A DNA stretch of 64,000 nucleotides. Origin: Candidatus Latescibacterota bacterium. GTDB taxonomy: Bacteria; Latescibacterota; UBA2968; GCA-2709665. Positions 3,073-33,012 of the stretch are shown here, piece by piece. The DNA is taken from assembly GCA_965205485.1 (NCBI GenBank), contig OZ242180.1, forward strand, positions 1,200,535 to 1,264,534, written 5' to 3'. The notes beneath the pieces are model-generated. The model was not told the DNA's origin. It saw nothing but the letters and a program-made list of their open reading frames with translations, and made no database searches. Positions within the stretch are counted from its first letter, which is position 1. Each line of letters begins with the position of its first letter. The position numbers and the translations under genes were made by a program.

Positions 3073-6000
3073 TCAGTTCGACTTTTTGCCGAAAGCGCCT
3101 GCAAAGATGAGAAAATCACTGAACCCGATCGTGCCGTTTCCATCGAGGTCGAATCGCGCGTCATACCCCTCGTCTCGCTGACTCGTCCCGAATTGCGCCG
3201 CAAATTGCAGAAAGTCGGCAAAACCCACGGTCCCGTCGCCGTCGAAGTCCGGATTGCGGATGGTAGGCGGGAGGTACCGCGCGATATCCCACAGCAACAT
3301 CGTGCCGTCTCGGCTGCCACTGATCAGGGTCCTTCCATCCGGCGAAAACGCAACGGAATGAACCTCACTCGAATGTCCGTCCAAGGTGGCGATCTGGTTC
3401 CGGGTTTCCACGTCCCACAACTGGACCGAACCCCTTGACCCCGAAACGAGGGTTTCCCCATCAGGTGAGAACGCCACCGAATAGACAGAACCCGGATTGT
3501 GCATCGTACCGATAAGGGACCGGGTCCCCACTTCCCACAGCTTGATCGTGTGGTCCTCTGCCCCGGAGGCAAGAGTTGAGCCGTCCGGCGAAAACGACAC
3601 CGCACGCACAGCGGACCCGTGTCCGGCCAGCGTGGCAATCTCTGTTCTCGAGGCCACGTCCCACAACCGCGCCGTATTGTCACGACTGCCGCTGGCCAGC
3701 GTGCTCCCATTGGGCGAAAACGACAGGGACATCACATCATCGGTGTGTCCTTCCAGCATGCCGACCACGGCCCGCGTGGCAACGTCCCACAACCTGATCG
3801 TTCGATCCTTGCCCCCACCACCCCCCGTCGCCAACAGCGCACCGCCCGGTGAGAACGCCACCGATGGAATCATACCAGGATGTTTCTTAAGCGTGGCAAT
3901 CTCCCTTCCCGTCTCGAGATCCCACAGATGGAGCCGGTAAAGCGACCCGGCAGCCAGGATGCCGCCGTCAGGCGAAATCGCCACCGATTGCAATACATGT
4001 GGTGTGGCCAAGCTGGCATCCCACGAGAGCGTGGCGATCCTCGACTGTGTTGGCGTGTTCCACAGGTCGACCTGGCTGTTTGCCAATGCCGTGGCGAGGA
4101 TGTTGCCGTCGTCAGAGAGCGCCATCGAGTTGATTTGCACATGCCCGTAGAGCGTGACGGAACTTTCCGTCTCCAGATCCCGCAGCAATATGCCTTGTGA
4201 CGAGGCGGAGGCGAGAGTGACACCGTCCGGAGAAACCGCCATCGACGTGACGCCCCCTCTCACATGCTCATTTCCTCCTATCGAGCCAATCCGATTCCCC
4301 GTTGCCACATCCCAGAGGAGAATCGTACCTCTACTACCCGGGCTCAACCCGGTAAACAGAACGGACCCATCTGAGGAAAACACAACTGACTCGGCATACC
4401 TTACACCAGGGGGGTCCAGCGTGGCGACCTGCGTTTGCGCCGTGACATCCCACAGAATCACCGTGCCATCTCCGTAGGCGCCTGCGGACGCAAGGCGGTC
4501 TCCCTTGGGCGAATACGCCACCGATGTAACTGCTCTTTTGTGTCCTTCAAGGGTAGCGACCTCGGCTTGCGTGGCCATGTCCCACAGCCGTACCGTGCCA
4601 TCATCAAACCCGGATACCAACCGCGAGCCATCCGGAGAAAAGGAAATCGACCCGCGCCGACCGTTTCCCTCCCGCACCACCTCCCACGTGGCAAGCTGGA
4701 CCCTTGTGGCTACGTCCCAAACGCGGATGACCTGATCCCACGAGCCGGAAGCCAGTCTCGAGCCGTCCGGAGAGAAGACCACCGTGACCTCGCCCCGATC
4801 CGCGTGCCACAGCGTGCCGATCCGTTCGCCAGTTTCCACCTCCCTCAGCTCAACCCGGCCGTTGTCGAGTCCCGCCGCCAGCGTGCCGCCGGGGGAGAAC
4901 GACACCGAATGGACCGCACTCCCCGTCGGCAACAGGGCCTGCGCCCGGGACGTGGTCGCCCCGTACAGCCACACGCCGACGGACGTGGCAACCGCCAGCG
5001 TACGTCCATCCGGAGATAGCGCTACCGCACGGTCAGTAATACCCATGGTTCCTTTGCCCAGGCGCGCGGCGGCGCCATATGGCAGATGCCACGCCGTGTA
5101 GTCTCCCTCCAGGGAGGCGACCCCGGTCTCCACGCCTTCGGATCGAAAAGTCGCAACTTCCACGCTGCCGACGAATACCCCCACGGCGTATGTACCCGGA
5201 CGCGGACCCAGGGTAAGTGTCAACTCCGCGTGGCCGTTGGCATCGCTGATCGCCTGCTGAGACGTGTACCGGCCGCTGAGCCTGCCATCGCCACCCGTAA
5301 CCGTGAACGTCACCGACGCATTGGAAAGAGGATTGCCGTGCTGATCCTTGACCAGTACAACGAGTGGCTGTGCAAGTACCGATCCTGGCGCGCCTCGTTG
5401 CCCGTCGCCGGAGACGATCTCCAGCGCATAGGGACGGGGACGCGTCCACCGGGACGTGTTCCACAGGTTGACGGTGTTGTCCCGCGAGCCCGCGGCCAGG
5501 GTGGCGCCATCAGAGGAAAAGACCGCATCCAACACGGAACTCGTTTGCCCGGTCAGCGTTGCGATCCGCTCCCGGGCTCTCACGTCCCAAAGATAAACCG
5601 CTGAATTACCCGCAGCGCCGGCCAGAATCGCACCGCCGGGAGAAAACGCAACCGACTGCCACCCATCGCATTGATAATCGAGGTTGGCAATTCGAACCCG
5701 TGAGGCCACGTCCCACAGCATGATCGTGCTACCCCTGGAGCCGGCAGCCAGCATCGTACCGTCAGGCGAAAATGCGACCGACGTCATCCCGCGGGTATCG
5801 CCTTCAAGCATCACAACCTCTATGCGCGAGGCCGCGTCCCACAAACGCACCGTTCCATCCCGGGACGCAGAGGCCAGCGTGTTCCCATCCGACGAAAACG
5901 CCACGGATCTGACGGAAGCCGTATGTCCTGTGAGGGTGTGTTTTTCCTGAATTGTGGCCACGTTCCACAGCTTGAGTGTGCCGTCGTCCGATCCGGAAGC

Positions 6001-7428: not shown

Positions 7429-7943
7429 GGTGTTTTCATCCTTTCAGAAATCGGTCATCCCGGCGTCGTGGCACGTGAATGCCAGCAGCGCAAGCGCGGC
7501 AAAACGTATAGCGACCTTCGATATCGTCACTATGCGAACCCTCCTGTTCGTAACTGCCGAACACGTCCTCCGACCCATCAAACCTGCTTGACGTACCGTC
7601 TGTCTGAAGTATTCCGTTTTATGAATCTGGACCTCTGCGTATTGAGGGGTCGAATCCGGCTTATCCGACGCAGAATCTCGACGAATCAGGGTTCTATCGT
7701 GCCGACGACTTGTCCTTTTGGGTCAACAACGCAAAGAGGTTCCCGGATGAACCCGGCGCCGCTGGTCAACTCATGCTCAGCGCTGGCGGGCGTACCCTCG
7801 ATCCCGGTATGGCGGTTATTCCCGACGCCAATTGTCGCGCCCCGGTCCCAAATGTCCTCGGCGTCATATTGTGGCACGGTTTTTTTTCATCATGGTGATG
7901 TCAGTTGGCGCTTATGACATTGCCCTCGATGGACGAATCACGG

Positions 7944-8351
7944 CTAATTCGACGTCGAACCTGAGCACCGCTGGGACCGTTCCACCACACTCGCGAGCGT
8001 CACTCCGCCGGAACTGACGGCCACCTGGAAATCCCGTCCCGACTCGCACGTGCTCCTAAGGTCGCTGCTGAGATCGAGCTGTGCACAAGCGGCTCTGTAC
8101 GCCGCGTTCAGGGCTTCCTGCTGGGTGGCGCCAGAGCCGGTACCCCGTCCGGTGCCAGACGGTGAACTGAGGCTTCCCAATCTTGAGGGAACCAATGTCA
8201 GCGTCACTTCGCATTGAAATGAACTCAATCCAGTACCGTTGTCCTTTCCGCAGGCAAAGGCGAAGAACAGGGCGAACACGCTGATCCCAAACAAAGCCTG
8301 AAACCCTGACGTTGACCCAATGCGCCCCATCTGACTTGTAAGACGATTCAT
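7944..8351 (-). CDS. Small hypothetical lipoprotein
   Basis: MNRLTSQMGRIGSTSGFQALFGISVFALFFAFACGKDNG is a signal peptide plus lipobox. GGAG lies upstream of the ATG at 8351. The rest is Ser/Gly-rich. Confidence 0.45.
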   Translation of the reverse strand: MNRLTSQMGRIGSTSGFQALFGISVFALFFAFACGKDNGTGLSSFQCEVTLTLVPSRLGSLSSPSGTGRGTGSGATQQEALNAAYRAACAQLDLSSDLRSTCESGRDFQVAVSSGGVTLASVVERSQRCSGSTSN

Positions 8352-8389
8352 CCTGGACTCCTTGATTTGGACCGGCGTGATACCTGATA

Positions 8390-8623
8390 TCATCGACGTG
8401 CTTCGGATCTAAGGGCATTCACGTCTACAAATATGAATACATCCGCGAATTCCGCCGTGCCGTTGCCATCGAGGTCGATCTTCGCATCGGTACCGCGGTA
8501 CGCATCGGCAAAGAGGAAGATTTCCACGGAATCCGTCCTGCCGTCACCGTCGAAGTCTGAGGCTGCAGCTGTGTTTGGAGAGGGTGTGGTCCTTGCGGGC
8601 ATTTTTTTTGAAATCACGTCCAA
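8390..8623 (-). CDS. Stand-alone dockerin-like mini-ORF (77 aa), possibly a gene remnant
   Basis: It consists almost only of SDFDGDGRTDSVEIFLFADAY...IDLDGNGTAEFADVFIFV, i.e. two Ca-loop segments, and has no signal peptide. Confidence 0.35.
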   Translation of the reverse strand: MDVISKKMPARTTPSPNTAAASDFDGDGRTDSVEIFLFADAYRGTDAKIDLDGNGTAEFADVFIFVDVNALRSEARR

Positions 8624-8683
8624 CCGATCCGTGATCGTCCTAGTCGTCCTGTCGGACTAGATTCCGCGACCGGTTCTCCGTTG

Positions 8684-9475
8684 TCAAAACAGACAACCGC
8701 CAATTGTAAGGGCGCGAAAACCGTCCTTGCTATACATTTGATCTTCCGTGTAATTCAGACGGTAACGTCTTTTCTCAGACGGTTTTAGAACGCTCTTCCG
8801 GCCTTCGAATTCTATCTGGCATTCGTCGCTGGTATCATTGTCCAATTCAATGCTGAATCGGCCAAGCAACGGTAGCAGAGCGTCTCCGTCTTTCATGGTA
8901 ATCCGGGCGCTGCTGAATTCGTGGACCTCGTTCGCGAGGTTACGATGTATTTCTCTGTTTACGTACATTCTCAATATCATCGAGTCATCGCTCGTTTCGG
9001 CCGAGAATGAGAACAGTTCCAGATGTGGGATTACAAGAGTAACCGGCACCACGGCGCTAACCATCATAACGCCGTATGAACCCACTCCCGAACCAGCTGA
9101 CATCTGGTGTTTGGATATGAACTCATCCTTTCTCAACGTATATTCTTTCGTCTTATTGCCGTTTTCATCGGTGATGGTTCGGCTTGTCAATGTTCCGCAA
9201 TACTTCACTTCCGGCCTGTTGAAATATCTCCGCAAGACAGGGTTTAACTGATCTATGCTTTCCTGGCAGTTCTTTGCTTTCGAACTGCTTGGAACCAGGA
9301 ACTCCGCCGGCAACAATATTCCGTCCTCGGATCGCCACACGGCTTTCAGACTCGTGATACGAATGAAGAAGTCCGCGTCGATACTTACACAGGCCGAAAA
9401 CAACAACAGCACCAGGACACCAACGAAATCCGTTGCCCGCCGGCCGCTTTTGGCGATATCCAGGTTTGCCATCAT
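8684..9475 (-). CDS. Hypothetical lipoprotein in a compositionally atypical (low-GC) segment
   Basis: N-terminus FVGVLVLLLFSAC. The protein is K/N/S/I/Y-rich. By eye the segment is roughly 48% GC against 60-65% in its neighbours. Confidence 0.55.
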   Translation of the reverse strand: MMANLDIAKSGRRATDFVGVLVLLLFSACVSIDADFFIRITSLKAVWRSEDGILLPAEFLVPSSSKAKNCQESIDQLNPVLRRYFNRPEVKYCGTLTSRTITDENGNKTKEYTLRKDEFISKHQMSAGSGVGSYGVMMVSAVVPVTLVIPHLELFSFSAETSDDSMILRMYVNREIHRNLANEVHEFSSARITMKDGDALLPLLGRFSIELDNDTSDECQIEFEGRKSVLKPSEKRRYRLNYTEDQMYSKDGFRALTIGGCLF

Positions 9476-9546
9476 GCCCTCCAGGTATAACGGTTTAATG
9501 TACCTTCCAGTTATTCCATCTGTACGATGGTCATGATCCCATGCGA

Positions 9547-10749
9547 TCAGGGCAGGCTGACAATCGTCCAGACGTTGCCGCTTCGGGTCAGATGCAGCCT
9601 GTTCAGTCGGACAGTGCCGCCGCTGAACCGCGTATTGCCCAACCGTATCCCTCCGATATTGCCGTCCACAACCAAAACGCTCGCGTCGTTACGAAGCGTG
9701 TATCCTGAACCCTGACATCCTTCTCCCGGTCTCATCGTCAACCCAACCGTGCACGTCTGGCTGGCGCCACCGCCACCGCCGGATCCCGTCACGGTCACAT
9801 CGATCGTCCGTTCGGCACTCAAGCTGCCGGGGTCGGTCGCCGTGACGGTCACCGTCGCGTCCCCGGCCGACCTCGGCGTTATCTCCAATGTCGAATCCGT
9901 AACACTCACTGCCGCCACCGAGGTATCACTGGAAACCGCCGAATAAGTCAACGCGTCGCCGTCAGGATCGCTGAAACCGTGAGACAGGTCCACCGATGCG
10001 GCCGCGCCGCCTGCTGCCAGGGTCTGTGCGGGGATGTCGGCGGCGGCCACAGGCGCTCCGTTCTCTCGCTCAACGATCTGAAACTCGCCACGCAGGGTCA
10101 GTGGCGCGGAACCCGCCTCGGTATAGGTGCTGACGAACGTGCCCGACGTCGTCGATGTGAACGTCAGTTGGATCACGACCTTCTCCCTTTCAGGGTCGTT
10201 TCCCGTCACATCGTAGGTGTACGTAACCGTCCCGGTATTCGGGCCGGTATTGACGTAACGGTAACTGCCCTCGTGGGCGACGCCATCCTCGATTTCCCGT
10301 ATTCGTCCCGGGGACAGGAAGATCAGCCTGAGGCCGGTGGCGGGCGTAACCTGCCTGCCAACCGCGAAACGGTCGAAGGCATTCCGGTCCGCCGGCGCAA
10401 AGCCGGAAGGCGTCGATTCGACCGTCTTGCCAAAATCGGCGGCAAACGCGACAAAGTCCGGGAACCCGATAGCGCCATCGCCATCCAGGTCGAACCGGGC
10501 ATCGAACCCTGCGTCGCCCTGTTGGGACCCGAACACGCTCGCGAATGCCAGGAAATCGGAGAATCCAACAGTCCCGTCACCGTCGAAGTCGGGAGACGGG
10601 ACGCCAACGTCTCTCTGGTTACCCGCCCCCGCATCGACAATCAGATCAAGTGACAACACGGCGTTTGCATTCGAACCGGCGATCGCGTAGTCCAACGTTA
10701 TCAGCACACCCAGGACGGCGATCCACTTTATGCCATTTCTCGTAAACAT
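9547..10749 (-). CDS. Secreted protein: N-terminal dockerin-like module, Ig-like domain, conserved C-terminal Cys domain
   Basis: - AGGAGG lies 7 nt upstream of the ATG at 10749.
- Signal peptide, then SPDFDGDGTVGFSDFLAFASVFG...DLDGDGAIGFPDFVAFAADFG.
- Ig-like segment SDPDGDALTYSAVSSDTSVAAVSV...ATVTVTATD.
- C-terminal CTVGLTMRPGEGCQGSGYTL...SGNVWTIVSLP. Confidence 0.75.
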   Translation of the reverse strand: MFTRNGIKWIAVLGVLITLDYAIAGSNANAVLSLDLIVDAGAGNQRDVGVPSPDFDGDGTVGFSDFLAFASVFGSQQGDAGFDARFDLDGDGAIGFPDFVAFAADFGKTVESTPSGFAPADRNAFDRFAVGRQVTPATGLRLIFLSPGRIREIEDGVAHEGSYRYVNTGPNTGTVTYTYDVTGNDPEREKVVIQLTFTSTTSGTFVSTYTEAGSAPLTLRGEFQIVERENGAPVAAADIPAQTLAAGGAAASVDLSHGFSDPDGDALTYSAVSSDTSVAAVSVTDSTLEITPRSAGDATVTVTATDPGSLSAERTIDVTVTGSGGGGGASQTCTVGLTMRPGEGCQGSGYTLRNDASVLVVDGNIGGIRLGNTRFSGGTVRLNRLHLTRSGNVWTIVSLP

Positions 10750-11026
10750 TGACGTATCCTCCTGTTGTTTAAGGACACCGGCGCCTTGCCACTGTCGCAT
10801 CGTGCTGAAGTTTCGATTGAATGTGCAGCCATACCTGATACCTGATGGGCCATGCATTACTCACGGGGATCCGGGTCGCGGCGACTTCCGGGTCAGAGTA
10901 TGGTCGGGCGAATAACAGGACTACATATAAAGGCAATATGTGTGCCAATGTGTTTCCATGGCATTGAATGACTGTAAGACATTGATTTTATGTGGGATAA
11001 AAGTGTGGCAAGGTACAACAATAAAA

Positions 11027-11132
11027 AGGCCAGGCCGAATTGCAGGGACGATATATCGACCGACAATTCAGCCTGGCTCGCTTATATTATTGAAAAACAG
11101 TTAGATACAACAGGGTCGATATATCGACCCTG
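11027..11132. promoter_or_regulatory. AT-rich divergent promoter region with two copies of the palindrome CAGGG(A/T)CGATATATCGACC
   Basis: gacgatatatcgacc sits at about 11048-11062 inside a 14-bp-arm hairpin (gccaggccgaattg...caattcagcctggc). A perfect palindrome gggtcgatatatcgaccc lies at about 11113-11130. Both are upstream of the minus-strand gene that starts at 10749. Confidence 0.4.
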
Positions 11133-11232
11133 TTCCGGAATTTGGCCCCCTACGGTTGGGTAACGGACTCCGTCATCCCTGCCGGCGACACAGGCCCCGT
11201 GGCCTGATCAGCCGGCAACACAGTTTTATACA

Positions 11233-11442: not shown

Positions 11443-11611
11443 TGGGTTGAATCCCTGCGCACGTCTCCCTTCCGAACCCCCCCTCAGTTCGCCGGAATGG
11501 TGTAATAAGGCGATGCATTGGGATCACGTGCCGTACTTCCTCCGATGACCAGTTCGAGTCCCGCAGCATGTTCGCGTGCCACGACGTTCGCGCATCTCGG
11601 TGTCCCGGGGT

Positions 11612-12839: not shown

Positions 12840-14900
12840 TTAATCCGCTACGTGAATTGTCCAACTGTTGCTGCCACTGTTTTTCGTGGCGTGAAAGTTC
12901 CACCGTACGCCGTTTATGTTGGCGCCTCTGGCGTCTATACCGGTACCGGCGCTGAAGAACGCGATAGATCCCCTTCCGGAACTGGATACAGAGAAGGTAT
13001 TGCCCTTGTAAGTGCAGGTTTCGCCAGGATTCACGACCAACCCGGCCCTGCAAGCGCCCAGGTTGGACGTGCCGCCGTCGAATTCTACGGTAACGCCTCG
13101 GCGCTGAAGAGTTGGAATGTGCGTGTTGCGCGATGCATTGCTCAAGGGATTACTCTTCAGATTTACTGTATCACCGGTACCCAGGCCCGTGTTTGCCACC
13201 AATGGCGAAACATCCGAGATGTCGTTGTCTTCCAGTCCCAGGATTTCCAGGTTGGTCAAGGTGGACAACGCGGATATGCGAGAGATATCGTTCTGGTTAA
13301 GGTACAGGTATTTAATGCTGGTCAAGTTGGACAGTGCGGAGATGTCTGAAATGCTGTTGTTCCAAAGAACCAGATTCACGAGGTCGGTCAAGTTGGACAG
13401 TGCAGCAACATTCGAGATGCTGTTGTGTTCAAGACCCAGCCGTGTCAGTTTGGTCAAGTTGGACAAGGCGGATATATCAGAGATACTGTTGTAATCCAGA
13501 AACAGCCATGTCAGGTTGGTCAAGGTGGATAGCCCGGATAGATTCGTGATGCTGTTTTCGAAAAGATCCAGATAGAAGAGTCCGGTCAAGTCGGATAACG
13601 CGGAAATATCCGAGATCCCATTCTGGCTGAGTCCCAGCCGCGCCAGGTTGGTCAGGGTGGATAGCCCGGATAGATTCGTGATGCTGTTCTCGTTAAGGAA
13701 CAGGTCTGTCAAGCCGGTCAAGCCGGAGAGGTCGGATATATCCGAGATGCTGTTTCTGTAGAGATCCAGATATGCCAGGTTTGCCAAGCCGGAGACGGGC
13801 GAGAGGTCGGATATATCGTTGCTGTTGACCCACTTCCCCCCTTCTTCCGCCCGCACTCGACCAAGGTTCAGGCCCCGCAAACTGGTGGCATGTTCGAGAC
13901 CCGCAAGGTTACGAATCCCCATATTGGGCGCGTCAATACGTCTCAAGGTCGCCACCTCGGCACGGGTAATCGGCGCATTGGGCGCTTTGCCCAGGCTATC
14001 CGCGATCACCGCACGCAGGTTGTCATCGGGAATGGTCACCGTCTCTCCGTCGCCGGAAGATGTCCCCCCGCCGCCGGAGGGCGGAACCTGACTTCCGAAC
14101 GCGCCGGCGAAGATCAGAAAATCCGAAAAAGCAACGGATCCGTCGCCGTCCAGATCGAACCTCGCCTCATACCGCGCGCCGCCCCGGTTGGACCCGAAAC
14201 TGCCGGCAAATGCCAGGAAATCCGGAAACCCCACAGTCCCATCGCCGTCGAAGTCGGGCGACGGCGCGGTGTTGAACGAGATCTCAATGCTCGTCCTGAG
14301 TACGTCGCTGGACGTTGAACTCTCGGCGAGTGTGACAGACGCGATGCCGATGGAAAACGCCCTTCCCGTTACGTCTGCAACCGTCTCGAACTCCGCGCGC
14401 GCCAGGAATCCCGAAGATGCCAGTGTCGCGGGCGAAGTGGAGGCGAGGGCTGCGCCGACGGATCCCTCGGGCAGCGAAAGGGCAAACGCGCTGTTTTCGG
14501 CTTTGACGAAAGACACGAGAGAGGCATCGAAGTCGAATCTGAGGATGACGCCGCGCAGAGTGGTCGTGACCCCCGTGGCGAAGACTTCAAGGGCGATGGT
14601 CGTGCCGCGTCCCGACACGTTGCCCGTCGTCACCCCGTCGTCCCTCCGGTTGCCCGCCCCGCCGTCAGCGATCAGGTCAAGCGACAAAACCGCATTCACA
14701 TTGTTACCCAGGGCGATTTTCGCGGCGCGTTCCGACATCGTACGTTCGACGGCGTCTGCATCCCCGGCGGTAGCCAACTCACCGCCTTCAATCAGGTCAA
14801 GAGTCAAGATCCCGTCTTCGCTGGACACGACGAGAGCTGCACCTGTTATCACGGAGAAGCCGACAACCGCAATCGACAACAGGCGAAATACAGGATTCAT
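12840..14900 (-). CDS. Secreted protein: cohesin-like beta-sandwich (tentative), dockerin-like module, about 12 leucine-rich repeats, conserved C-terminal Cys domain
   Basis: - Signal peptide.
- TIALEVFATGVTTTLRGVILRFDFDASLVSF resembles a cohesin core.
- Dockerin-like SPDFDGDGTVGFPDFLAFAGSFG...DLDGDGSVAFSDFLIFAGAFG.
- LRR units NLT.L..L.L..N.ISDIS.LS.
- C-terminus CRAGLVVNPGETCTYKGNTF...SNSWTIHVAD, homologous to the C-terminus of 9547..10749. Confidence 0.8.
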   Translation of the reverse strand: MNPVFRLLSIAVVGFSVITGAALVVSSEDGILTLDLIEGGELATAGDADAVERTMSERAAKIALGNNVNAVLSLDLIADGGAGNRRDDGVTTGNVSGRGTTIALEVFATGVTTTLRGVILRFDFDASLVSFVKAENSAFALSLPEGSVGAALASTSPATLASSGFLARAEFETVADVTGRAFSIGIASVTLAESSTSSDVLRTSIEISFNTAPSPDFDGDGTVGFPDFLAFAGSFGSNRGGARYEARFDLDGDGSVAFSDFLIFAGAFGSQVPPSGGGGTSSGDGETVTIPDDNLRAVIADSLGKAPNAPITRAEVATLRRIDAPNMGIRNLAGLEHATSLRGLNLGRVRAEEGGKWVNSNDISDLSPVSGLANLAYLDLYRNSISDISDLSGLTGLTDLFLNENSITNLSGLSTLTNLARLGLSQNGISDISALSDLTGLFYLDLFENSITNLSGLSTLTNLTWLFLDYNSISDISALSNLTKLTRLGLEHNSISNVAALSNLTDLVNLVLWNNSISDISALSNLTSIKYLYLNQNDISRISALSTLTNLEILGLEDNDISDVSPLVANTGLGTGDTVNLKSNPLSNASRNTHIPTLQRRGVTVEFDGGTSNLGACRAGLVVNPGETCTYKGNTFSVSSSGRGSIAFFSAGTGIDARGANINGVRWNFHATKNSGSNSWTIHVAD

Positions 14901-24692: not shown

Positions 24693-24730
24693 CGAGGCGG
24701 AGATGCCTTACCTACTATTGTCTGTACGCT

Positions 24731-27700
24731 TTATTCCCGTGATTCAGTCTCCGTGACCCTGCGGAGATTCAGGATGATGGGTTCGGGTTGATCGTGTCTG
24801 GTCCATGTGTGCTCGATCGCACAGTTGAGAGGGATCGGCGCTTCAGGTACTATCGCGATTTTTGAAGTGGATGGCAGGGTGTAGGCATCGGCCTTGGTAA
24901 CGTCGACGGTGTAGCCTAAGTCCGCCATCGACTGGATCGTGATCGCGCTGAGGGGATTGGAGAAAGTTTCCAACCTAGACGTCATCAGTTCGCCGTCCAT
25001 TACGGATTCCCGCCAGTGGCTGTCCCGGCTGCCCGCTCCGCCTGAGTTCTCCACCGGCACCTTGGCGCCGGTGTAGCTCGACCCGTCCGCTGCGTCGAAG
25101 GCGGCAATCGCCTTCGTGCCCGAAAAATAGGTATCCGGAGCCGGATCGATGGGGATTCGGAATGGGCTGAGGGAGGGGTCCTTCAGGAGGTCGAGAAATG
25201 TCCAGGAAGTGGCATTGAATCCCAGCGCGTGGCCCATCTCGTGCAGAACGACGGCTCTCTGTATTTCTTCCGAATACGTGCTCAGTATGTCCGAATCGAG
25301 AGTGATTCGGGATACGGCCGGCAGAAAGGAAGGGACCCGGCTCAACAGCGACGCCCCCTGTCCGATCGCACCGACCAGATCAACGACGCGCACGTAGAGT
25401 ATGAGATCATCCACAACCTCGGGGGCGGCAGACCCTGGAAATTCCCCATTCAGGAAACTGCGATTGCTGCTGGATAAACGATGGTTGGGAAGATCGCCGG
25501 TGATGATTTCCTCCCAGCGCTCGGCTCCGTCTTCAACATAGGTTCGGTATGTCGACGAGACGCTGCCGACGAAGACAAGCTCGATATCGAAGGAAGCCGT
25601 CCCGGACGTGGTCTCTTCGTCGGTCGCGGACCTCGAACCCATCAGGCTGCCGTCGCAGGATACCCCCAGGTATCCGTAGTCCGCCTCATACGTGGTGCCC
25701 GGCTCGAAGAAATCCGATACCGCGTCCTCCAGCGTTACGGATATGGACTGTTGCGAAGCTTCATCGTTGGTCTCGGTATGGCACCCTGTGGCCCAGGGTC
25801 CTTGGTTCGTCTTCTGACGGATTCGTACATGGTACGCCCGGGTTTCGTCGGCCGCGAAGTTGTCGGTGAATGTCAGCGTGAAGAGGTTGCCGGCGATGGT
25901 CAGGGTGGGCGCCGAAAGGGTTGGCGTCCGGACCGTGACCTCGAACGTCTCCGAGTCGGATGCACCGTATGGATCGCTCGCCGTCACGGTGATGGTCGCG
26001 CTGCCGGCGGCCTGCGGATCTACGAGGATCTCCGTGCTGATCATCTGAACGGTAGCGGCAGCCGTGTTGCCGGACGACGCGGTATAGCTGAGCAGGTCCC
26101 CATCCGGGCTGCTGAACACGCCGTCCGCGGATACGATCTCGACGGCGCCTCCCACCGCAAGCGTGAGGTCGTCGAAGGTGCCGACGGCCACCGGCGGCTG
26201 GTTGGGGATCTCGATCTCGGCCGAGGGCGACCACTCGCTGTCCCCTTCGTCGTTCTTCGCCTGTACCTGCACCTCGTAGGTAAGGCCTTTGGTCAGATTC
26301 TCGATTCGGGCATCCAGGGTCGCGGACGTGTACGTGGTACCGGTGAAATCGTCGCCGCTGTCCTTCTCCCGGTGTTGCACTCCCCAGCCAGTGATTTCCG
26401 GCCCGGTATTCACCGGCGGGATTCGGCCCCCCATGCCCACCGCGATGGTGGGAGTAGTCCCGTCTAGGAAACCCAGCCCTGGCGCCGGCGGCCGGCCCGG
26501 GGGCTCGTCCACATCGGAAACATTGATGGCGATCTGCCGTTGCCCGGTCCGTTGCCTGGTGCCCATGCCGCTGGTGACGGTAACGACGATCTCATTCCGG
26601 TTGCTGCTTCCCGCCGGACGTTCGTAGTCAGGTACATTCACGAAGGTGAGGTGGCCCTCGCCGCCCCGGGTGGCAATCTCGAACAGCGATCGGTCGCGGC
26701 CTCCGGTAAGCTCGTACCCGGTGATGTAGTCCCTGTCATCCGGGTCCGTTCCCACTATGGAAATGTGCCCGGTGAAGTTCTCGTTCACGGTCCAGGAATT
26801 GTGGAAGATGGAGGGCGGGCTGTTGGTGGTGACCGCGGTCTCCGTGACCGTCACCTCCACGTTGACGGCGGTGACTCCTTGATAGCCGCCGCTGACCGTG
26901 TGGGTCAGGATGACCTCGTCGTCATCGCTGTCGGTGTCCGCGCTGGCGCTCACGGTCACCGTCTGCGGCGTATCCCAGTCCTGGTCGGTGAATGTCAGCG
27001 GCGACGGGTTCACCGTGACATCGGCGCCCGAGGGCACGGTCACGGTCACCGTCACGTCGGCGGTGGGCTGCATGGTCAACACCACCGTGTAGGTGTCGCT
27101 GTCGTCCTCCCCGATAGTCAGTTCGGTGGGATAGATTTCCACCCCCGCTTCGGCGTCGATGACGACCAGCGGCAGGTCATCGGACAGCACCAGTTCGTAC
27201 CCGTTGTCACTCGCCGGGAGGGCCGGCAGTACCCCGAGATCGACGGTGACTGCCCCGCTGGACCCGGCGGTGCGGGAGACTGAGAGCGGCTCACTCTCGA
27301 CACTGCCCTGGGGGATCGTGATGCTCCCTTCGCCGCTGTCGATCTCACCGTTGGAAAGCCGCAGCGGCAGGACCATATCGAAGGGCGCGCCGGTGTGCGC
27401 TCTTGCGACGAACTGGTCCGTCCCCGCCGCTTCCAGTGAAACGGCAATCGGCAGCGGGTCGACCGGGTTCCATTGGAGCTGGAGTTCGTTCAGTTCCGTC
27501 AGTCCGGAAAATACGCTGTCTCCCAGTGTGGATAAGTCCATTTGTCTCAGGTCCAACGATCTCAACTCCGTCAGTCCGGAAAGAAGGCCGTCCAGTGTAG
27601 ATACATCGGTGGCTCTCAGGCTTAGCGTTCTGAGATTCGTCAGTCCGGAAAAAACGGTGTCCGGCAGTGTGATGAGGTCGTTGTTGTAGCTCAGGTTGAG

Positions 27701-30700
27701 GGTCTCGAGTACAGTCAGGCCGGAGAGGAGGTCGCCCGGCACGGAGGTGAGACCCATGCTGTAAAGTTCGAGATGGGTAAGCGCCGTCAGCCCGGAGAAA
27801 AGGGCGGCGTCGATGCTGCCGCCGGCGATCTCGTTGCGGCTCAGGGTGAGGTGTTCAAGCGACGACAGGCTTGAGAAAACGGTCGCCGGGAAGCTGGTGA
27901 GGCGGGCATATTCCAGGTCCAGGTGCTCCAGCCCCGACAGGTTCGAGAAGACGTCCGCCGGCAGGCTGGTGATTCGGGAATTGCTTATATCGAGGTGTTT
28001 GAGCCCCGACAAGCCGGAGAACTCGTCGGCCGCGAGATCGCCCAGAAGATTGTTACGGAGGACGAGTCTGTCAAGCGCCGTCAACGTGGAGAAGCCGTTG
28101 GCCGGCAGGTTGTTGATGCGGGCGCTCAGCAGATCGAGATTGGTCAGGGATGTCAGTCCGGAGAACAGGTTTACGTCGAAGTCGCCAAGTTGACTGAAGG
28201 ACATTTCGAGAGTTGTCAGTGCGGTCAGGCCGGAGAATGTGTTCGCTCCGAGATTGGAGAGGTTGTTCTGCCTGAGATGGAGCTCTTCCAACGCCGTCAG
28301 CCCGGCAAAGTCGCCAGCTTTCAACGTGGAGATGTTTTCGTCTCTCAGCGAGAGGCGCCTGATCGCGGCAAGATGGTCGGGGGTTACGTCTCCGCAGGCG
28401 CTGACCCCCGTTTCATCCACAATCGCGTCCCGCACCTGAGCGGTGCGGCTGCAGACGTCCTGGAGGTTGGTCACCGCCAGGTTGCTGAGGGCGCCGGCGG
28501 GGTTCTGCGCCCGGTCTCGGATCGGGTTGGTCCCCGGGGTGTAGGCCAGCGCCACCGTCTCGCCCGTGCTCACGGCCGAGGGCAGGGTGAGCGTCAATAC
28601 GGTATTGCTCATGGTCACCGAGGTAACGCTCCGCGCCTCGCTGTCTACGGTCACGTTGAAATCCCCCGCTGCTGGCTTCGAAGTGGCGTCGAGCCTTTCT
28701 CCGTAGGTGAGGGTCAGCTCGTCGCCATCCACTTCGGCTTTGGTGGGGGTCGGGGCTTTGCCGTCGACCTTGTGGCTGGACTGATTGGCGCGTGCCGCGT
28801 GCGCCAGGTCGGCATTGATGGTGGAATTGCTTCTGACGATACTGCCGCCGTTGCGCTTGAGACCGTTTTCTTTGATGGTGGCGCCATTGGTGTCCTCGTC
28901 GGTGTTCTGTACGGTGTATTGGAAGAGGAGTTGTGTTGTCGTCGAGCCACTCTGGTAGCCGGCCTCGCGCCGGGTGGTACCGACCGTCAGGTCGACCTGC
29001 GGCGTGCCGGTGACGGTCACCGCTTCGCTGAAGGTCACTGTTATGGAAATAACGTCACTCAATTTGTAGGTGTTGTTCTGTCCTGAGGCAGGGGTCGAGG
29101 TAAACGCGACGTTCGATACCGTGGGTGCGGTGAGGGTGGTTCCACTGCCCGTATTGGACCAGGCGCCCGTTCCTTCGTCGTTCTTTGCCTGCACCTGGAA
29201 CTGATAGGTCCTGCCCGCGCGCAGGTTCGAGAGGACGCGCGTGCGGGTCACGCTGGTGTCGGCAGAGGCGGTGAACGAGCCGCTCTCGCGGTACTGCAGG
29301 AAGTAGCTCGTGATTTCCGGACCGGTGTTGTACGGCTCGTCCCACCTTACCGTGAGGCTGCTCTCCGTGGTGTCGCTCACCACGGGCGGGGCGGGCTTGC
29401 CCGGGGGCTCCAACTCGTCCTCCACGGCAACGGTGATGGTCTGCGTGGCCGTCAGCGCCCGAGCGTCCGCCCCGCCCGTCACCTCGACTTCAACGGTGTA
29501 CTCGTTGTCGCTCCCCGCGTCCGCCGGCCGTTCAAAGTCGGGGTCATCCCTGAAGTGCAGCTCCCTGGTGTTCTTGATCTCGAAGTCGTCGCTGTCCGCA
29601 CCGCCCGTGACGACGTATCCCGTGATGCCGTCGTCCCTGTCCACGTCCTGCGCGGCCAGCTGCCCCGCCCTCAGGACGTTTTCCTTGACCATGAAACTAT
29701 CCACGCTGGTGAAGTGGGGCGGCTCGTTCACGTCCGTGACGGGCACGGTGATCGTATGCGCAGCCGTCAGCGCGCGGCCGCCCGACCCGCCGGTGGCGGT
29801 GACCTCCACGACGTAGCTGTTGTTGCTTCCCGCGTCCGCCGGACTCTCGAAGTCAGGGTCATCCCTGAAGGTCAGCGCCCCCGTGTTGCTGATCTCTAGC
29901 CTGGCGCGGTCGCTTCCGCCGGTCAGGGTGTAATCCGTGATGTTGTCAGCGCCGTCGAGGTCGTCGGCGGTGACCGTGCCGGCGAAGGACTGGTTTTCCG
30001 GGGCCTCGAGCGTCGCCTCCCCGGTGAACACGGGCGCCTCGTTCAGATCCGTCAGGTCGATGGACACCGGGATACTGCTATCGCCGCCGTGGCCGTCGGT
30101 GGCCTTCACGTTCACCGAATAACGGGACAGGACCTCATAGTCGTAGGTCCTGCCCGCCTTTGTCATGAGCTGGCCATTCCGCGTGTCGATGGTGAAGGAG
30201 TCCGCGTGTGTGCCTTCCAGCGCGTACGTCAGCGTGGTCATCTCAGCGTCGGTCGCACTGACCGGATCGCCGATGTCCTTGACGCCCGTCGTGTTCTCCG
30301 CCAGGGTGCGGGTAGCGCTGCCTCTGTCGGTAAACACGGGCAAAACGTTGGCATTGGTGTTTCCCGTACCCCGTTCCGACCAGTCGCTGGCGCCTTCGGG
30401 TGAGCGCGCCAGCACTTGCACCTGGTACCTTGTGCCCGGTGTCCTGCCCGTGATGGTTGCACTGCGTTCCGCGCTGTTGTGCGTCCACGAGGTGAAGCCG
30501 CCGCTGTCCCCTTGCCGATACTGTACGTCGTAGTCGTTGATGTCCGGGCCCGTGTTTGCCGGTTCGTCCCACGTAACCTCCAGGCTCGTGGACGAGGCCG
30601 CGGCGACGTCCGGCGCGCCCGGCGTGCCGGGTCTTTCCTGCAGGTCCGTCAGGTTGATCCTGACGGCAATCGTGTTGCTGCCGCCCTGCCCGTCTTCGAC

Positions 30701-31948
30701 GCGCACGATGACGTCATAGCGGGGCTTCGCCTCGAAGTCATAGGTCTGTCCCGACACCGTCTTTAATTGACCGTCATCCGCTCCAATTGTGAAGCTCGCG
30801 GCATCCGCGCCGGACAGGCTGTATTCCGGCGTGTCGCCATCGTGATCCCTCGCGGTGACCGGGCTGCCGACGTCGTTTGTGCCCGTCGTATTCTCGGCGA
30901 ACGAGCGTGTGGCGCTGGCCCCTTCATTGAACGTGGGCGCGCGATTGGCGCTGGTTCGAGCATCCACCGACTCCGACCAGGCGCTTTCCCCTTCGGGAGA
31001 GCGCGCCAGCACCCGCACCTGGTAGTCCGTGTTGGTCGTCAGAGAGGTGATGGTCGTACTCGTGCCGGGACCGTCGTGGGTCCACGGGGAGAAAGAGCCG
31101 GTGGTTCCTTCCCGGTATTGCACGTCGTAGTCGTCGATGGGGGGGCCCGTGTTGGCAGGGGCCGTCCAGCGGATGGAAAGGCTGTTCAGCGTCTGTGCCG
31201 TGACCGTCGGCTTGTCCGGCGCCTCGGGATCTTCGCTGTCGTCGTCGGTCACGTCGACGGTCACGTTGATCGTCGCCAGCCCGCCCTGTTCGTCCCGCGC
31301 TTCTACGGTCACGGAATAGCGGTTCTTCGTCTCGAAGTCGTAGTTTACGCCGTCAGCGGTCCGCAATTGACCGGTCCTCACATCGATGTCAAAACTCTCC
31401 GCGTCGCCGTCGGAGAGGCGGTACGTCACGGCGGTGTTCTCCGGGTCGTCCGCCCGCAACCGGGTGCCCAGGTCCTGCACACCGGTCGTATTCTCGGCGA
31501 CTTCGCGCGTGGCACTCCTTCCCTCGTCGAACACGGGCGGCAGATTGCTGCTGGTCGTGCCGAAGCCAGCGCGGGACCAGAGCGATGTCCCTTCATCGTT
31601 TGTTGCCCGAACCTGCACCTCGTACCGGGTATTGGCGTCGAGGTCGCTGATCGTCGTAGTCGTGCCCGGCCCATCGTGAGCGTGGGGGAGGAAGTTGCCG
31701 CTCTTGCGGTATTGCACGTCATAGTCCGTGATATCCGGGCCCGTGTTGTCCGGCGCGTCCCACGTCACCGTCAGGCTGGTCGTCGATGCCGGCTGCACCA
31801 GAAGCGCGGCGGGAACCTCCGGCGGCTCGTTCACGTCGGCCACGTGGATGGTCACGCCGATGGTTGCTGATTCCCCGTACGGATCGCTGGCTACCAGGTC
31901 AACGGAATACCGATCGTTATCCTCGAAGTCGTACGTGATGCCCAACAA
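24731..31948 (-). CDS. Giant surface adhesin-like protein, C-terminal 2405 aa: cadherin-like repeats, FN3-like repeats, LRR block, C-terminal HExxH zincin-like domain. It continues the gene at 31891..33012 after a frameshift.
   Basis: - Repeated ...GQL.T..G..YDFE....Y.V.V.A.D..GG.....V.I.VTDV.E.P units (cadherin-like).
- FN3-like P..P..P.V......SL.V.W..P.NTGP.I..Y.VQYR units.
- An LRR region of the form L.L..N.LS.L....FSGLT.L..L.
- C-terminal VVLHEMGHALGFNATSW. Confidence 0.8.
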   Translation of the reverse strand: MLGITYDFEDNDRYSVDLVASDPYGESATIGVTIHVADVNEPPEVPAALLVQPASTTSLTVTWDAPDNTGPDITDYDVQYRKSGNFLPHAHDGPGTTTTISDLDANTRYEVQVRATNDEGTSLWSRAGFGTTSSNLPPVFDEGRSATREVAENTTGVQDLGTRLRADDPENTAVTYRLSDGDAESFDIDVRTGQLRTADGVNYDFETKNRYSVTVEARDEQGGLATINVTVDVTDDDSEDPEAPDKPTVTAQTLNSLSIRWTAPANTGPPIDDYDVQYREGTTGSFSPWTHDGPGTSTTITSLTTNTDYQVRVLARSPEGESAWSESVDARTSANRAPTFNEGASATRSFAENTTGTNDVGSPVTARDHDGDTPEYSLSGADAASFTIGADDGQLKTVSGQTYDFEAKPRYDVIVRVEDGQGGSNTIAVRINLTDLQERPGTPGAPDVAAASSTSLEVTWDEPANTGPDINDYDVQYRQGDSGGFTSWTHNSAERSATITGRTPGTRYQVQVLARSPEGASDWSERGTGNTNANVLPVFTDRGSATRTLAENTTGVKDIGDPVSATDAEMTTLTYALEGTHADSFTIDTRNGQLMTKAGRTYDYEVLSRYSVNVKATDGHGGDSSIPVSIDLTDLNEAPVFTGEATLEAPENQSFAGTVTADDLDGADNITDYTLTGGSDRARLEISNTGALTFRDDPDFESPADAGSNNSYVVEVTATGGSGGRALTAAHTITVPVTDVNEPPHFTSVDSFMVKENVLRAGQLAAQDVDRDDGITGYVVTGGADSDDFEIKNTRELHFRDDPDFERPADAGSDNEYTVEVEVTGGADARALTATQTITVAVEDELEPPGKPAPPVVSDTTESSLTVRWDEPYNTGPEITSYFLQYRESGSFTASADTSVTRTRVLSNLRAGRTYQFQVQAKNDEGTGAWSNTGSGTTLTAPTVSNVAFTSTPASGQNNTYKLSDVISITVTFSEAVTVTGTPQVDLTVGTTRREAGYQSGSTTTQLLFQYTVQNTDEDTNGATIKENGLKRNGGSIVRSNSTINADLAHAARANQSSHKVDGKAPTPTKAEVDGDELTLTYGERLDATSKPAAGDFNVTVDSEARSVTSVTMSNTVLTLTLPSAVSTGETVALAYTPGTNPIRDRAQNPAGALSNLAVTNLQDVCSRTAQVRDAIVDETGVSACGDVTPDHLAAIRRLSLRDENISTLKAGDFAGLTALEELHLRQNNLSNLGANTFSGLTALTTLEMSFSQLGDFDVNLFSGLTSLTNLDLLSARINNLPANGFSTLTALDRLVLRNNLLGDLAADEFSGLSGLKHLDISNSRITSLPADVFSNLSGLEHLDLEYARLTSFPATVFSSLSSLEHLTLSRNEIAGGSIDAALFSGLTALTHLELYSMGLTSVPGDLLSGLTVLETLNLSYNNDLITLPDTVFSGLTNLRTLSLRATDVSTLDGLLSGLTELRSLDLRQMDLSTLGDSVFSGLTELNELQLQWNPVDPLPIAVSLEAAGTDQFVARAHTGAPFDMVLPLRLSNGEIDSGEGSITIPQGSVESEPLSVSRTAGSSGAVTVDLGVLPALPASDNGYELVLSDDLPLVVIDAEAGVEIYPTELTIGEDDSDTYTVVLTMQPTADVTVTVTVPSGADVTVNPSPLTFTDQDWDTPQTVTVSASADTDSDDDEVILTHTVSGGYQGVTAVNVEVTVTETAVTTNSPPSIFHNSWTVNENFTGHISIVGTDPDDRDYITGYELTGGRDRSLFEIATRGGEGHLTFVNVPDYERPAGSSNRNEIVVTVTSGMGTRQRTGQRQIAINVSDVDEPPGRPPAPGLGFLDGTTPTIAVGMGGRIPPVNTGPEITGWGVQHREKDSGDDFTGTTYTSATLDARIENLTKGLTYEVQVQAKNDEGDSEWSPSAEIEIPNQPPVAVGTFDDLTLAVGGAVEIVSADGVFSSPDGDLLSYTASSGNTAAATVQMISTEILVDPQAAGSATITVTASDPYGASDSETFEVTVRTPTLSAPTLTIAGNLFTLTFTDNFAADETRAYHVRIRQKTNQGPWATGCHTETNDEASQQSISVTLEDAVSDFFEPGTTYEADYGYLGVSCDGSLMGSRSATDEETTSGTASFDIELVFVGSVSSTYRTYVEDGAERWEEIITGDLPNHRLSSSNRSFLNGEFPGSAAPEVVDDLILYVRVVDLVGAIGQGASLLSRVPSFLPAVSRITLDSDILSTYSEEIQRAVVLHEMGHALGFNATSWTFLDLLKDPSLSPFRIPIDPAPDTYFSGTKAIAAFDAADGSSYTGAKVPVENSGGAGSRDSHWRESVMDGELMTSRLETFSNPLSAITIQSMADLGYTVDVTKADAYTLPSTSKIAIVPEAPIPLNCAIEHTWTRHDQPEPIILNLRRVTETESRE

Positions 31949-33012
31949 CGTGCGCAGCTGCCCGCTGCCCGGAGCTGCCCGTCGCTGGCGCGTACGGTGA
32001 CGGTATACCTGTCCCTGGCCTCGTGGTCGTACGCAATCCCCTCCCTCGTGAGCAGCTGACCCGTTCCCACTTCAATCGCAAAGCTGTCCGCGTGCCCGCC
32101 GCGCAGGCGGTACGTCAGCGAGTCGCCGTCGGCGTCCGTGGCCGTGACTGGATCGCCGATGGGTTGCCCCGCCGGCGTGTTCTCGTCCACGGTACGTGTC
32201 ACCGGAGATGTGGCGGTGAACACAGGCCCGCGGTTGGCCTCTTCGCCGAAGCTGCTGGCGAAGAACACGAAGTCCTCAAAGCCGATGCCGCCGTCGCCGT
32301 TCAGATCGTACGCCGCGTCGTACTTCCCGTCGCCCTGCCGCGTCCCGAAGATGCCCGCGAACGCCACGAAGTCGGAGAAGCCCACCACCCCGTTGCCGTC
32401 GAAGTCCGGAGACGGCGACGCGGGTACCTGCAGCGTCACGCCAACGGCAGCAGAGATCGTCTCTGTCTTTCCGCCGCGGGTAAGTTTCGGGTCCGCCAGC
32501 CAGACCTCCGTATCAGAGAATGCAGTCTTAGTGCTGAAGAGCAGCGAGCCGATCCAACCGGAGTTCGTAGTTGCGGAACCGGTCAGCGAAGAGACACCGA
32601 TACCCAACGATGAGGAGTCCTGCCGTACGACAGGCTGGGCGTTCGGCAGCGCGTCGCCAGCATCGAAGCCCTCGTAGGAGACCTGCGATGCTTCGAAACG
32701 CAATCTCGCGGAGACACCGGTGGCGCCCTGGATATCCGTGCCGAAAATCTGGATGGTGAAAGGCTGATCGGGAAGGAGGTCGAGCGAGGAGACGGCCTGA
32801 TCGCCTGCTGAATCGTCAAGGTCCAGCGTGAGGGAAAACCCGCTGGTTTGCGTCAACGGCGACCACGGAAACACGAACAGCAGTAGGCAAAACAGAATGA
32901 GGACGCCGGGCGCGAGCCGTTGTAATCCGACATTATTCTCAGGATCGTTGTCGCTCACGGTCAGACCCGCCAATGATGTGCCTCCCACGCATAAGCCCGT
33001 GCCGGTTTCCAA
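31891..33012 (-). CDS. N-terminal part of the giant adhesin-like gene: signal peptide, cohesin-like module (tentative), dockerin-like module, first cadherin-like repeat
   Basis: - Hydrophobic LILFCLLLFVFPWSP.
- VSSLDLLPDQPFTIQIFGTDIQGATGVSARLRFEASQVSYEGF.
- SPDFDGNGVVGFSDFVAFAGIFG...DLNGDGGIGFEDFVFFASSFG.
- The repeat begins VDENTPAGQPIGDPVTATDADGDSLTYRL... and breaks at ASDGQ. The next repeat continues in another frame as GQLRTLLGITYDFE. Confidence 0.7.
   Translation of the reverse strand: METGTGLCVGGTSLAGLTVSDNDPENNVGLQRLAPGVLILFCLLLFVFPWSPLTQTSGFSLTLDLDDSAGDQAVSSLDLLPDQPFTIQIFGTDIQGATGVSARLRFEASQVSYEGFDAGDALPNAQPVVRQDSSSLGIGVSSLTGSATTNSGWIGSLLFSTKTAFSDTEVWLADPKLTRGGKTETISAAVGVTLQVPASPSPDFDGNGVVGFSDFVAFAGIFGTRQGDGKYDAAYDLNGDGGIGFEDFVFFASSFGEEANRGPVFTATSPVTRTVDENTPAGQPIGDPVTATDADGDSLTYRLRGGHADSFAIEVGTGQLLTREGIAYDHEARDRYTVTVRASDGQLRAAGSCARCWASRTTSRITIGIPLTW

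Follow-up and report, generated by a model that had tools for sequence, protein, structure and literature searches.

Genes and modules of the island

We examined a 64-kb stretch of DNA from a Candidatus Latescibacterota bacterium (contig OZ242180.1; we refer to the whole stretch as the window). Positions 3073–33012 of the window hold an island of genes whose products carry duplicated calcium-loop (Ca-loop) modules. An earlier reading of the DNA (the original prediction) had proposed that these modules are dockerin-like, that two of the proteins also carry candidate cohesin-like partners, and that the island, if these are real pairs, encodes a self-assembling extracellular complex. All seven of the predicted duplicated segments within about 30 kb were found. 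Translation of the long open reading frames (ORFs) places all of the dockerin-bearing genes on the minus strand, and each module has two Ca-loop segments that are 33 amino acids (aa) apart, or 27 aa apart in P77. Across all six reading frames of the window, there are 15 occurrences of the motif D.[DN]G[DNS]G, of which 14 are inside the seven modules and none is in the remaining 31 kb of the window, beyond 33 kb. In 100 mononucleotide shuffles of the window, it occurs 0.16 times on average and at most twice.

Three of the genes encode giant proteins that combine a protease with WD40 propellers and that end in a module, as had been predicted. (All of the features in this and the next three paragraphs are on the minus strand, module types are those described further below, and bit scores for dockerins are from a local hidden Markov model, or HMM.) P1451 (3073..7428) has a signal-peptide-like N-terminus, a metzincin-type peptidase (HEIGHAFGLLHD), a WD40 propeller (E 2e-178), a Big_1 Ig-like domain (40.5 bits), more WD40 repeats, and a C-terminal type-1 dockerin (3076–3258, 108 bits). 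P1543 (15124..19755) has a signal peptide, an N-terminal domain of no assigned family, M60-like_N and Peptidase_M60 domains (17512–18579, with HEVGH; E 2e-23 and 2e-73, respectively), Big_1, WD40 propellers, and a type-1 dockerin (15127–15309, 108 bits). P1163 (19752..23243) has a signal peptide, a metzincin-type peptidase (HELGHTFGLGHD), Big_1, WD40 propellers (E 1e-86), and a type-1 dockerin (19755–19934, 100 bits). The stop of P1163 and the start of P1543 overlap by 4 nt, which suggests that they are co-transcribed.

The remaining modules had been assigned to four other proteins, and these assignments stood in part. The placements in P436 and P686 were correct. P436 (9547..10857) has a signal peptide, the first ~25 aa of a cohesin-like module of the type that we term cohA (10600–10671, E 1.2e-7 with a local HMM), a type-1 dockerin (10417–10599, 104 bits), a region of no assigned family, a Big_9 Ig-like domain, and a C-terminal domain of ~80 aa that contains cysteines. 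P686 (12840..14900) has a signal peptide, a complete cohA module (14265–14717), a type-1 dockerin (14082–14264), an array of leucine-rich repeats (LRR; 13101–14033), and a C-terminal domain (12843–13100). The third host, P373, does not stand alone but forms the start of a giant gene (24731..33012), which a frameshift splits near 31891–31990. The P373 part (31891–33012) encodes a signal or anchor sequence, a cohesin-like module of a second type, cohB (32413–32844), a type-1 dockerin (32227–32415), and cadherin. The P2405 part (24731–31948; 2405 aa) encodes cadherin and fn3 repeats (fn3 E 3e-69 in Pfam), an SWM repeat, LRR, Big_9, and a leishmanolysin-like M8 peptidase (24884–25408, with HEMGHALGF; Peptidase_M8 53 bits in Pfam). 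In both P686 and P373, the cohesin-like module is about 145 aa long and lies at the N-terminus, with the dockerin directly after it. The fourth host, a 77-aa ORF, does exist (P77, 8390..8623), but it is a degenerate type-2 dockerin (module 8414–8557) without a signal peptide.

P254 (11612..12376) is a DUF3472 protein (E 2.7e-32), and a degenerate cohB fragment lies upstream of the giant gene (33471..33716; local cohB HMM E 8e-5, model positions 63–100). The signal-peptide-like N-termini of the window's proteins were judged by eye. Two further ORFs among the dockerin genes, 7944–8393 (149 aa) and 8684–9475 (263 aa), have lipoprotein-like N-termini (…FAFAC and …LFSAC) and no family match. We found no tRNA genes in the window and no Rfam matches at the gathering threshold.

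The C-terminal domains of P686 (12843–13100) and P436 (9550–9790) are alike: they have 80–85 aa and two cysteines. The same domain is found at the extreme C-terminus of many cohesin–dockerin proteins from related loci and could serve in sorting or anchoring. It has no match in Pfam or NCBIfam, which does not support its being a known sorting signal.

Identity of the Ca-loop modules

We conclude that the Ca-loop modules are of the dockerin type, as predicted, and that they are somewhat divergent from the Pfam seed. Their best match among PDB sequences is the Cel48 dockerin of Pseudobacteroides cellulosolvens (2y3n_B; E 5.5e-8 with one sequence as the query), which aligns without gaps over 57 residues. 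With a profile of 24 family members as the query, 2y3n_B is again first (55.8 bits in a single stretch), and the dockerins 4u3s_B, 4wi0_B, and 5k39_B also match in single stretches. In contrast, calmodulins require a 3-aa gap and pass merely as sums of weak stretches, both with the single sequence and with the profile. Dockerin_1 of Pfam (PF00404) matches 21 of the 24 family members at E ≤ 0.01 (best E 1.1e-8).

The copies in the window score less well than this with the Pfam model. The six intact modules reach 19.0–20.1 bits with Dockerin_1, across model positions 3–51 of 57, which is near but under the gathering score of 22.9; P77 has no match; and NCBIfam's dockerin_GC (NF041540) is under its cutoff. 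(With the local HMM, the six modules score 100–108 bits, versus 20 bits for P77.) The original prediction had noted that the segments might score better as EF-hands or as thrombospondin type-3 repeats. The first of these is partly right, as EF-hand_1 does outscore Dockerin_1 on the window's copies (up to 31 bits, gathering score 25.4), but this match spans just the loop and the exiting helix, and the full-length matches are to dockerins. Thrombospondin type-3 repeats gave no match. FG-GAP gave weak matches, the strongest being for P77.

The predicted structure also has the layout of a dockerin. In an AlphaFold2 (AF2) model of the P686 type, helices follow the loops (residues 159–168 and 192–201), and there is no helix before the first loop, so the arrangement is that of the dockerin F-hand and not helix-loop-helix. 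The loops follow the pattern DxDxDGxxxxxD at a constant spacing of 33 aa in six modules. The two halves of each dockerin in the window are about two-thirds identical to each other, which is compatible with a dual binding mode.

These results bear on one alternative to cohesin–dockerin pairing, which is that the Ca-loop modules are Ca-dependent stabilizers or ligand binders of the EF-hand superfamily and that the β-sandwiches next to them are generic Ig-like adhesins that contact ligands from the host or its matrix. Against the first half of this proposal, the full-length single-domain matches are to dockerins only. The second half turns on the identity of the N-terminal modules.

Identity of the N-terminal modules

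Direct sequence searches with the two cohesin-like modules of the window gave no match in Pfam, NCBIfam, or PDB sequences, and a profile of 17 cohesin-like sequences had no match among PDB sequences either. The evidence that these modules are cohesins comes from their predicted structures and from their orthologues. The AF2 models, which include the dockerin, had a pLDDT (predicted local distance difference test score) of 78 for the P686 type (cohA) and of 69.5 for the P373 type (cohB; 67–89 within the sandwich). When the P373-type model was compared to the PDB with Foldseek, the top 35 matches were all cohesins, with TM-scores on the target of up to 0.75, and they included the non-cellulosomal cohesin 2xdh of Archaeoglobus fulgidus. 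For the P686-type model, the listed matches were nearly all cohesins. The models have the jelly-roll β-sandwich that is expected of a cohesin (about 140–150 aa). That cohesins rank first by two structure-comparison methods and with two independent models argues against generic Ig-like adhesins.

The orthologues point the same way. Pfam's Cohesin (PF00963) matches 7 of 17 diverse family members and 5 of 6 cohB orthologues, one of which is over the gathering score (25.7 versus 24.1 bits); these matches, too, disfavor the proposal that there is no pairing. A protein from another locus, P0087, already has a faint precomputed Cohesin match on record. The profiles of cohA and cohB align with each other (hhalign probability 95.7%, E 8e-9), which indicates that the two types are homologous. 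The fold-level evidence consists of predictions, and the family-level sequence evidence is independent of them.

The original prediction held that the N-terminal modules are cohesin-like, and it would have been in difficulty if they had neither a cohesin HMM match nor a cohesin-like fold. Instead, the fold is predicted and an orthologue is over the gathering score. We conclude that the two N-terminal modules in the window are divergent cohesins, and we are highly confident that the modules of both kinds are homologues of dockerins and cohesins. The original prediction is supported at the level of module identity and of the logic of the system.

Peptidases and eukaryote-like repeats

The original prediction listed metzincins, M60-like peptidases, WD40, LRR, and cadherin domains as the partners of the modules, and no carbohydrate-active enzymes; Pfam matches in the window and in a sample of related loci agree. 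Four zinc metallopeptidases in the window have an intact HExxH motif: two of the metzincin type, one M60-like, and one M8-like. The extended metzincin motif HExxHxxGxxH(D) is present in both P1451 and P1163. The Pfam matches of these two proteins to reprolysin-like families are weak, near or below threshold (Reprolysin_4 and Metallopep for the N-terminal 370 aa of P1451; Reprolysin_5 and Peptidase_M66 for P1163). P1543 has the PF13402 and PF17291 domains and the HExxH motif of an M60-like (enhancin-like) peptidase. The other cargo in the window consists of arrays of WD40, LRR, cadherin, and fn3 repeats, which are eukaryote-like.

The related loci have similar cargo, namely metzincin-WD40, M60-WD40, M8, LRR, and cadherin/fn3 proteins, along with YWTD/LDLR-B propellers, NHL, CARDB, and cadherin-like domains. 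Among the Pfam matches of the dockerin-bearing proteins, in the window and in the sampled loci, there were no glycoside hydrolases, polysaccharide lyases, carbohydrate esterases, or carbohydrate-binding modules (CBMs).

Distribution of the modules and scaffoldins in relatives

We scanned one genome per GTDB species and found 119 relatives in 71 loci. Nearly all of these are in metagenome-assembled genomes (MAGs) of Candidatus Latescibacterota, including complete chromosomes of 4–6.5 Mb with many copies each and bins that are labelled as Gemmatimonadota (RHO1, RHO2, and RHO3). The arrangement of modules seen in the window recurs throughout this lineage, of which the island is one example. The closest loci have 85–93% DNA identity to the window. 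These bacteria are most likely sponge-associated, given the names of the bins and one homologue that is annotated as Candidatus Poribacteria.

In searches for homologues, the P686 module had 69 relatives and the P373 module had 17. The gene calls for most of them are of ~200–250 aa and comprise a signal peptide, the module, and a dockerin. Many of these short database homologues (P0001–P0086) are truncated and have out-of-frame tails. This suggests that frameshifts are frequent in the assemblies, so the small cohesin–dockerin "proteins" in the databases may be artifacts of broken giant genes.

With the local HMMs, the window and the 71 loci contain 223 dockerins and 122 matches to cohesin modules (111 cohA and 11 cohB). 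The most common ORF architecture is a dockerin without a cohesin (120 ORFs), followed by cohA-dockerin (89), cohA-cohA-dockerin (9), cohB-dockerin (3), and cohB-cohB-dockerin (1). Thus, nearly every cohesin is fused to a dockerin. The pair almost always comes directly after the signal peptide of a protein of 500–2600 aa, with a linker of ~0–5 residues.

The dockerins are of two types. Type 1 accounts for the six strong modules in the window, for the dockerins in all of the cohesin–dockerin pairs, for those that are alone at an N-terminus, and for some of those at C-termini. Type 2 differs in its consensus (DFNGDGRTDFVDFFLFADAYGGTDARFDLDGNGTVDFADFFKFVDAFG) and has 6 aa fewer in its linker; almost all of its copies (61 of 62) are C-terminal. 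Neither the type-1 consensus, which is nearly identical across positional classes (in a pair, alone at the N-terminus, or at the C-terminus), nor the counts across loci (see below) point to a pairing of particular cohesin and dockerin types.

The original prediction had suggested a search for scaffoldins with multiple cohesins. There are none in the window, which has single-cohesin proteins only, but they do exist in relatives. When 1.84 billion representative proteins were searched with a profile, 513 of them proved to be family members at E ≤ 0.001, and several of these have tandem cohesins. P0087 (8552–11854 of locus L072) has a signal peptide, seven tandem cohB modules, and one dockerin; P0088 is truncated and has five cohesins; P0089 has four cohesins, a dockerin, and LRR; and P0092 has three cohesins, a dockerin, and LRR. 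The gene for P0087 is beside a gene for a 1562-aa metzincin-WD40-dockerin protein, of the same kind as the protease-WD40 giants of the window, and its neighbors also include dockerin-LRR genes and a gene for a 1544-aa WD40-dockerin protein. (The ORF next to P0087 has a Gly/Ser-rich stretch and then LRR in another frame, so the gene may extend beyond its call.) The two kinds of modules strictly co-occur, and up to seven cohesins stand in tandem before a terminal dockerin. These features are the hallmark of scaffoldins and also argue against the proposal that the modules do not pair. In light of this and of the matches described above, we regard that proposal as improbable.

Another alternative accepts that the modules bind but has the cohesin and dockerin of each pair bind each other, as a closed intramolecular unit (a structural cap or an auto-inhibited clasp). 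There would be no chaining, and only the C-terminal dockerins of the proteases would bind scaffoldins, which would be encoded elsewhere. The two modules are indeed always adjacent, and they change position together: the pair is at the N-terminus of ~100 proteins and at the C-terminus of one (15005–18916 of L045). Also, in the model of the P686-type pair, the dockerin has a pLDDT of 87–95, and the predicted TM-score (pTM) is 0.65. On the other hand, the dockerin of the P373-type model has a pLDDT of just 47–60, the dockerin may be unable to reach the binding face of its own cohesin across a linker of about five residues, and the proteins with two to seven cohesins have one dockerin each, which leaves free sockets. 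We consider a closed unit to be unlikely.

Variability and decay of the island

Ordinary chromosomal genes flank the island: one for a thiamine pyrophosphate enzyme at one end, and those for HisG, a methyltransferase, and amidohydrolases at the opposite end. These flanks (1–3025 and 33670–42448 of the window) have 86–93% nucleotide identity to the related loci L002, L004, and L007, but the content of dockerin genes between the conserved flanks differs among these close relatives. For example, L002 lacks P1451 through P436, P1543, P1163, and the giant gene, while it retains the DUF3472 gene, with an N-terminal dockerin, and an orthologue of P686. At the site of the giant gene, L002 has a short remnant of the N-terminus of cohB (8517–8726).

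Several genes of the island itself appear to be broken. First, P373 and the 2405-aa ORF are in different frames and share 58 nt within a cadherin repeat, and the relative L013 has an intact cohesin–dockerin ORF of at least 2681 aa. Because of the overlap and the uninterrupted ORF, we treat P373 and the 2405-aa ORF as a single gene. The frameshift at 31891–31990 could be a collapse of tandem cadherin repeats in the assembly, or it could be real. Second, P77 aligns with type-2 dockerins and is probably a gene remnant with a decayed dockerin of this type. P77 is in the same frame as the 263-aa ORF upstream of it, with two stops (TGA and TAG) between them, so we do not favor joining the two as one gene with a single nonsense mutation. 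Third, P254 lacks the signal peptide and the N-terminal type-1 dockerin of its orthologues (L002 12040–13425 and L004 14632–16056). Finally, P436 retains just the first strand of a cohesin. Together with the variation between the flanks, these signs of decay indicate that the island is a hotspot for the gain, loss, and decay of dockerin genes.

Could it be that most of the genes in the island are decaying and do not function coherently in this genome? The frameshifted giant gene, the remnants (P77 and cohB), the loss of the dockerin from the DUF3472 gene, and the absence of most of the island from a relative as close as L002 would all fit. However, four ORFs of 1163–2405 aa are uninterrupted and have intact catalytic motifs, orthologues persist in other MAGs at 80–92% identity, and tandem cadherin repeats, in which the frameshift lies, are prone to assembly errors. 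We therefore view a nonfunctional island as very unlikely.

Beyond the island, on the plus strand (37961–54563), the window encodes an M81/MlrC-like peptidase, a 936-aa heparinase II/III-like protein, and large ORFs without Pfam matches. Two of these ORFs (42030–44450 and 49221–51674) are paralogues that are 48% identical and have no Pfam match. There is also a ceramidase-like gene at 61954–63390. The 37961–54563 region and the ceramidase-like gene may be involved in the utilization of glycans or lipids from the host.

A proposed assembly

We propose that the variable island encodes a non-cellulosomal cohesin–dockerin system whose proteins would be exported by Sec, after which their Ca-loaded dockerins would plug into the cohesins of other subunits. 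As each protein with an N-terminal pair has one socket and one plug, it could act as an adaptor or could form chains head-to-tail. The proteases with a dockerin only would be terminal cargo and would end the chains, whereas each multi-cohesin scaffoldin, encoded at some other place in the genome, would gather several cargo proteins. The assembly would hold proteases that are directed at matrix or mucin beside adhesive or decoy repeats at the surface of the symbiont, where it would process the extracellular matrix of the host or hold on to it. Three features suggest such a role in processing the host matrix and in adhesion: the M60-like, metzincin, and M8 peptidases; the adhesive repeats; and the neighboring heparinase-like, M81, and ceramidase-like genes.

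Some of our results weigh against this proposal. The window's own modules are under the Pfam thresholds for both Dockerin_1 and Cohesin. Some of the genes have decayed (the frameshift, the P77 remnant and the cohB remnant at 33471–33716, and the truncated DUF3472 gene). The window has two complete cohesins for six intact dockerins. It has no anchoring module. Latescibacterota are presumably diderm, and no route across the outer membrane is evident in the window. Finally, there was no significant correlation across loci between the counts of cohA or cohB and those of C-terminal type-1 or type-2 dockerins. With these points taken into account, we still find intermolecular assembly of the proposed kind fairly probable.

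The excess of plugs is not limited to the window, as the sampled loci have ~217 plugs and ~112 sockets. This implies that the window cannot be the whole system and that additional scaffoldins from elsewhere in the genome would be needed. As for anchoring, a partial ORF in a Latescibacterota MAG (L067 1–1209) has a weak cohesin-like module (E 1.2e-4) and a sorting domain of the type IX secretion system (T9SS type A, TIGR04183, 35.8 bits). This putative surface-anchored cohesin is a candidate lead for how the assemblies might be attached.

A broader hypothesis, which we offer tentatively and would sooner expect to be wrong in some part than right as a whole, is that sponge-associated Latescibacterota have a dedicated, lineage-wide plug-and-socket network. 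The basic unit of the network would be the adjacent cohesin–dockerin pair, which could polymerize head-to-tail. By means of such units, metalloproteases and eukaryote-like repeat proteins (WD40, YWTD, LRR, and cadherin) would be assembled at the cell surface or outside of the cell. Such a network would be a protein- and host-directed counterpart of the cellulosome and might be the missing route for the delivery or display of the eukaryote-like proteins of symbionts.

Comparison with known systems

Nearly all that is understood of cohesin–dockerin assembly concerns its use in breaking down plant cell walls. If our proposal is correct, then an animal symbiont uses the same device at large scale for proteases and for repeat proteins that mimic those of the host. 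A further use may lie in the design of protein scaffolds, for which the divergent types of cohesins and dockerins could supply additional orthogonal pairs.

The system resembles the cellulosomes of Clostridium (Acetivibrio) thermocellum, Ruminococcus flavefaciens, and Pseudobacteroides cellulosolvens in that secreted enzymes carry duplicated F-hand dockerins. It also has cohesin β-sandwiches, and in relatives of the window these are in tandem on scaffoldins that end in a dockerin, as in adaptor scaffoldins. Even the cargo has some precedent, as LRR proteins, peptidases, and serpins also bear dockerins in R. flavefaciens (PMC2930009), and cellulosomes are known to include proteases in an accessory role (PMC12484212). 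In contrast to cellulosomes, we found no glycoside hydrolases, CBMs, X-modules, or SLH or sortase anchors here; the cargo consists of metallopeptidases and eukaryote-like repeats. Furthermore, the usual cohesin carrier has a single N-terminal cohesin with a dockerin immediately after it, the bacterium is presumably a Gram-negative symbiont, and most of these cohesins are too divergent for Pfam. By analogy, then, the system would share the assembly logic of the cellulosome, yet it lacks the features that define one (carbohydrate-active cargo, a CBM, a known anchor, and, in the window, a multi-cohesin scaffoldin).

How do the eukaryote-like repeat proteins of sponge symbionts reach the host? Surveys report that sponge-associated Latescibacterota and Poribacteria have abundant WD40, LRR, fn3, and cadherin proteins (PMC8163846, PMC12993501), and delivery by classical secretion systems, which are scarce, was considered unlikely (PMC8163846). 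Neither of these surveys mentions dockerins or cohesins. The repeat proteins in the window carry signal-peptide-like N-termini and assembly modules, which suggests another answer: export by Sec, followed by modular assembly outside of the cell.

The original prediction also stated that such a complex has not been characterized. Indeed, in the literature that we searched on Poribacteria, Latescibacteria, or sponges together with dockerins or cohesins, we found no description of such a system, but parts of it have precedents. Besides the dockerins of R. flavefaciens on LRR proteins and peptidases, free-living Latescibacteria are reported to have dockerins and "cellulosome-affiliated" enzymes (Farag et al., 2017, as cited in PMC7081726 and PMC7424252). 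That report, as the citing papers present it, concerns the same phylum and also describes secreted proteins that bear dockerins, but it reads them as polysaccharide-degrading cellulosomes. The literature that we searched on Latescibacteria does not mention cargo with protease, WD40, LRR, or YWTD domains, nor the architecture of adjacent cohesin–dockerin pairs.

The other point of comparison is cohesins and dockerins that are not from cellulosomes. Among the best structural matches for our models are 2xdh, the cohesin from A. fulgidus, and 2jh2 and 2vo8, which are cohesins from the GH84 and GH33 proteins of Clostridium perfringens. Cohesins and dockerins reportedly occur outside of cellulose degradation, sometimes in one polypeptide. 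These cases involve one or a few modules per genome, and the cargo in C. perfringens consists of glycosidase toxins. Modules of this kind have been known for some time (Peer et al., 2009, as cited in PMC2930009). Latescibacterota differ from them in having dozens of modules per genome, two types each of dockerins and cohesins, and a cargo of proteases and repeat proteins. What appears to be new is thus a large and divergent cohesin–dockerin system, in a lineage of symbionts, that is devoted to metalloproteases and eukaryote-like repeat proteins.

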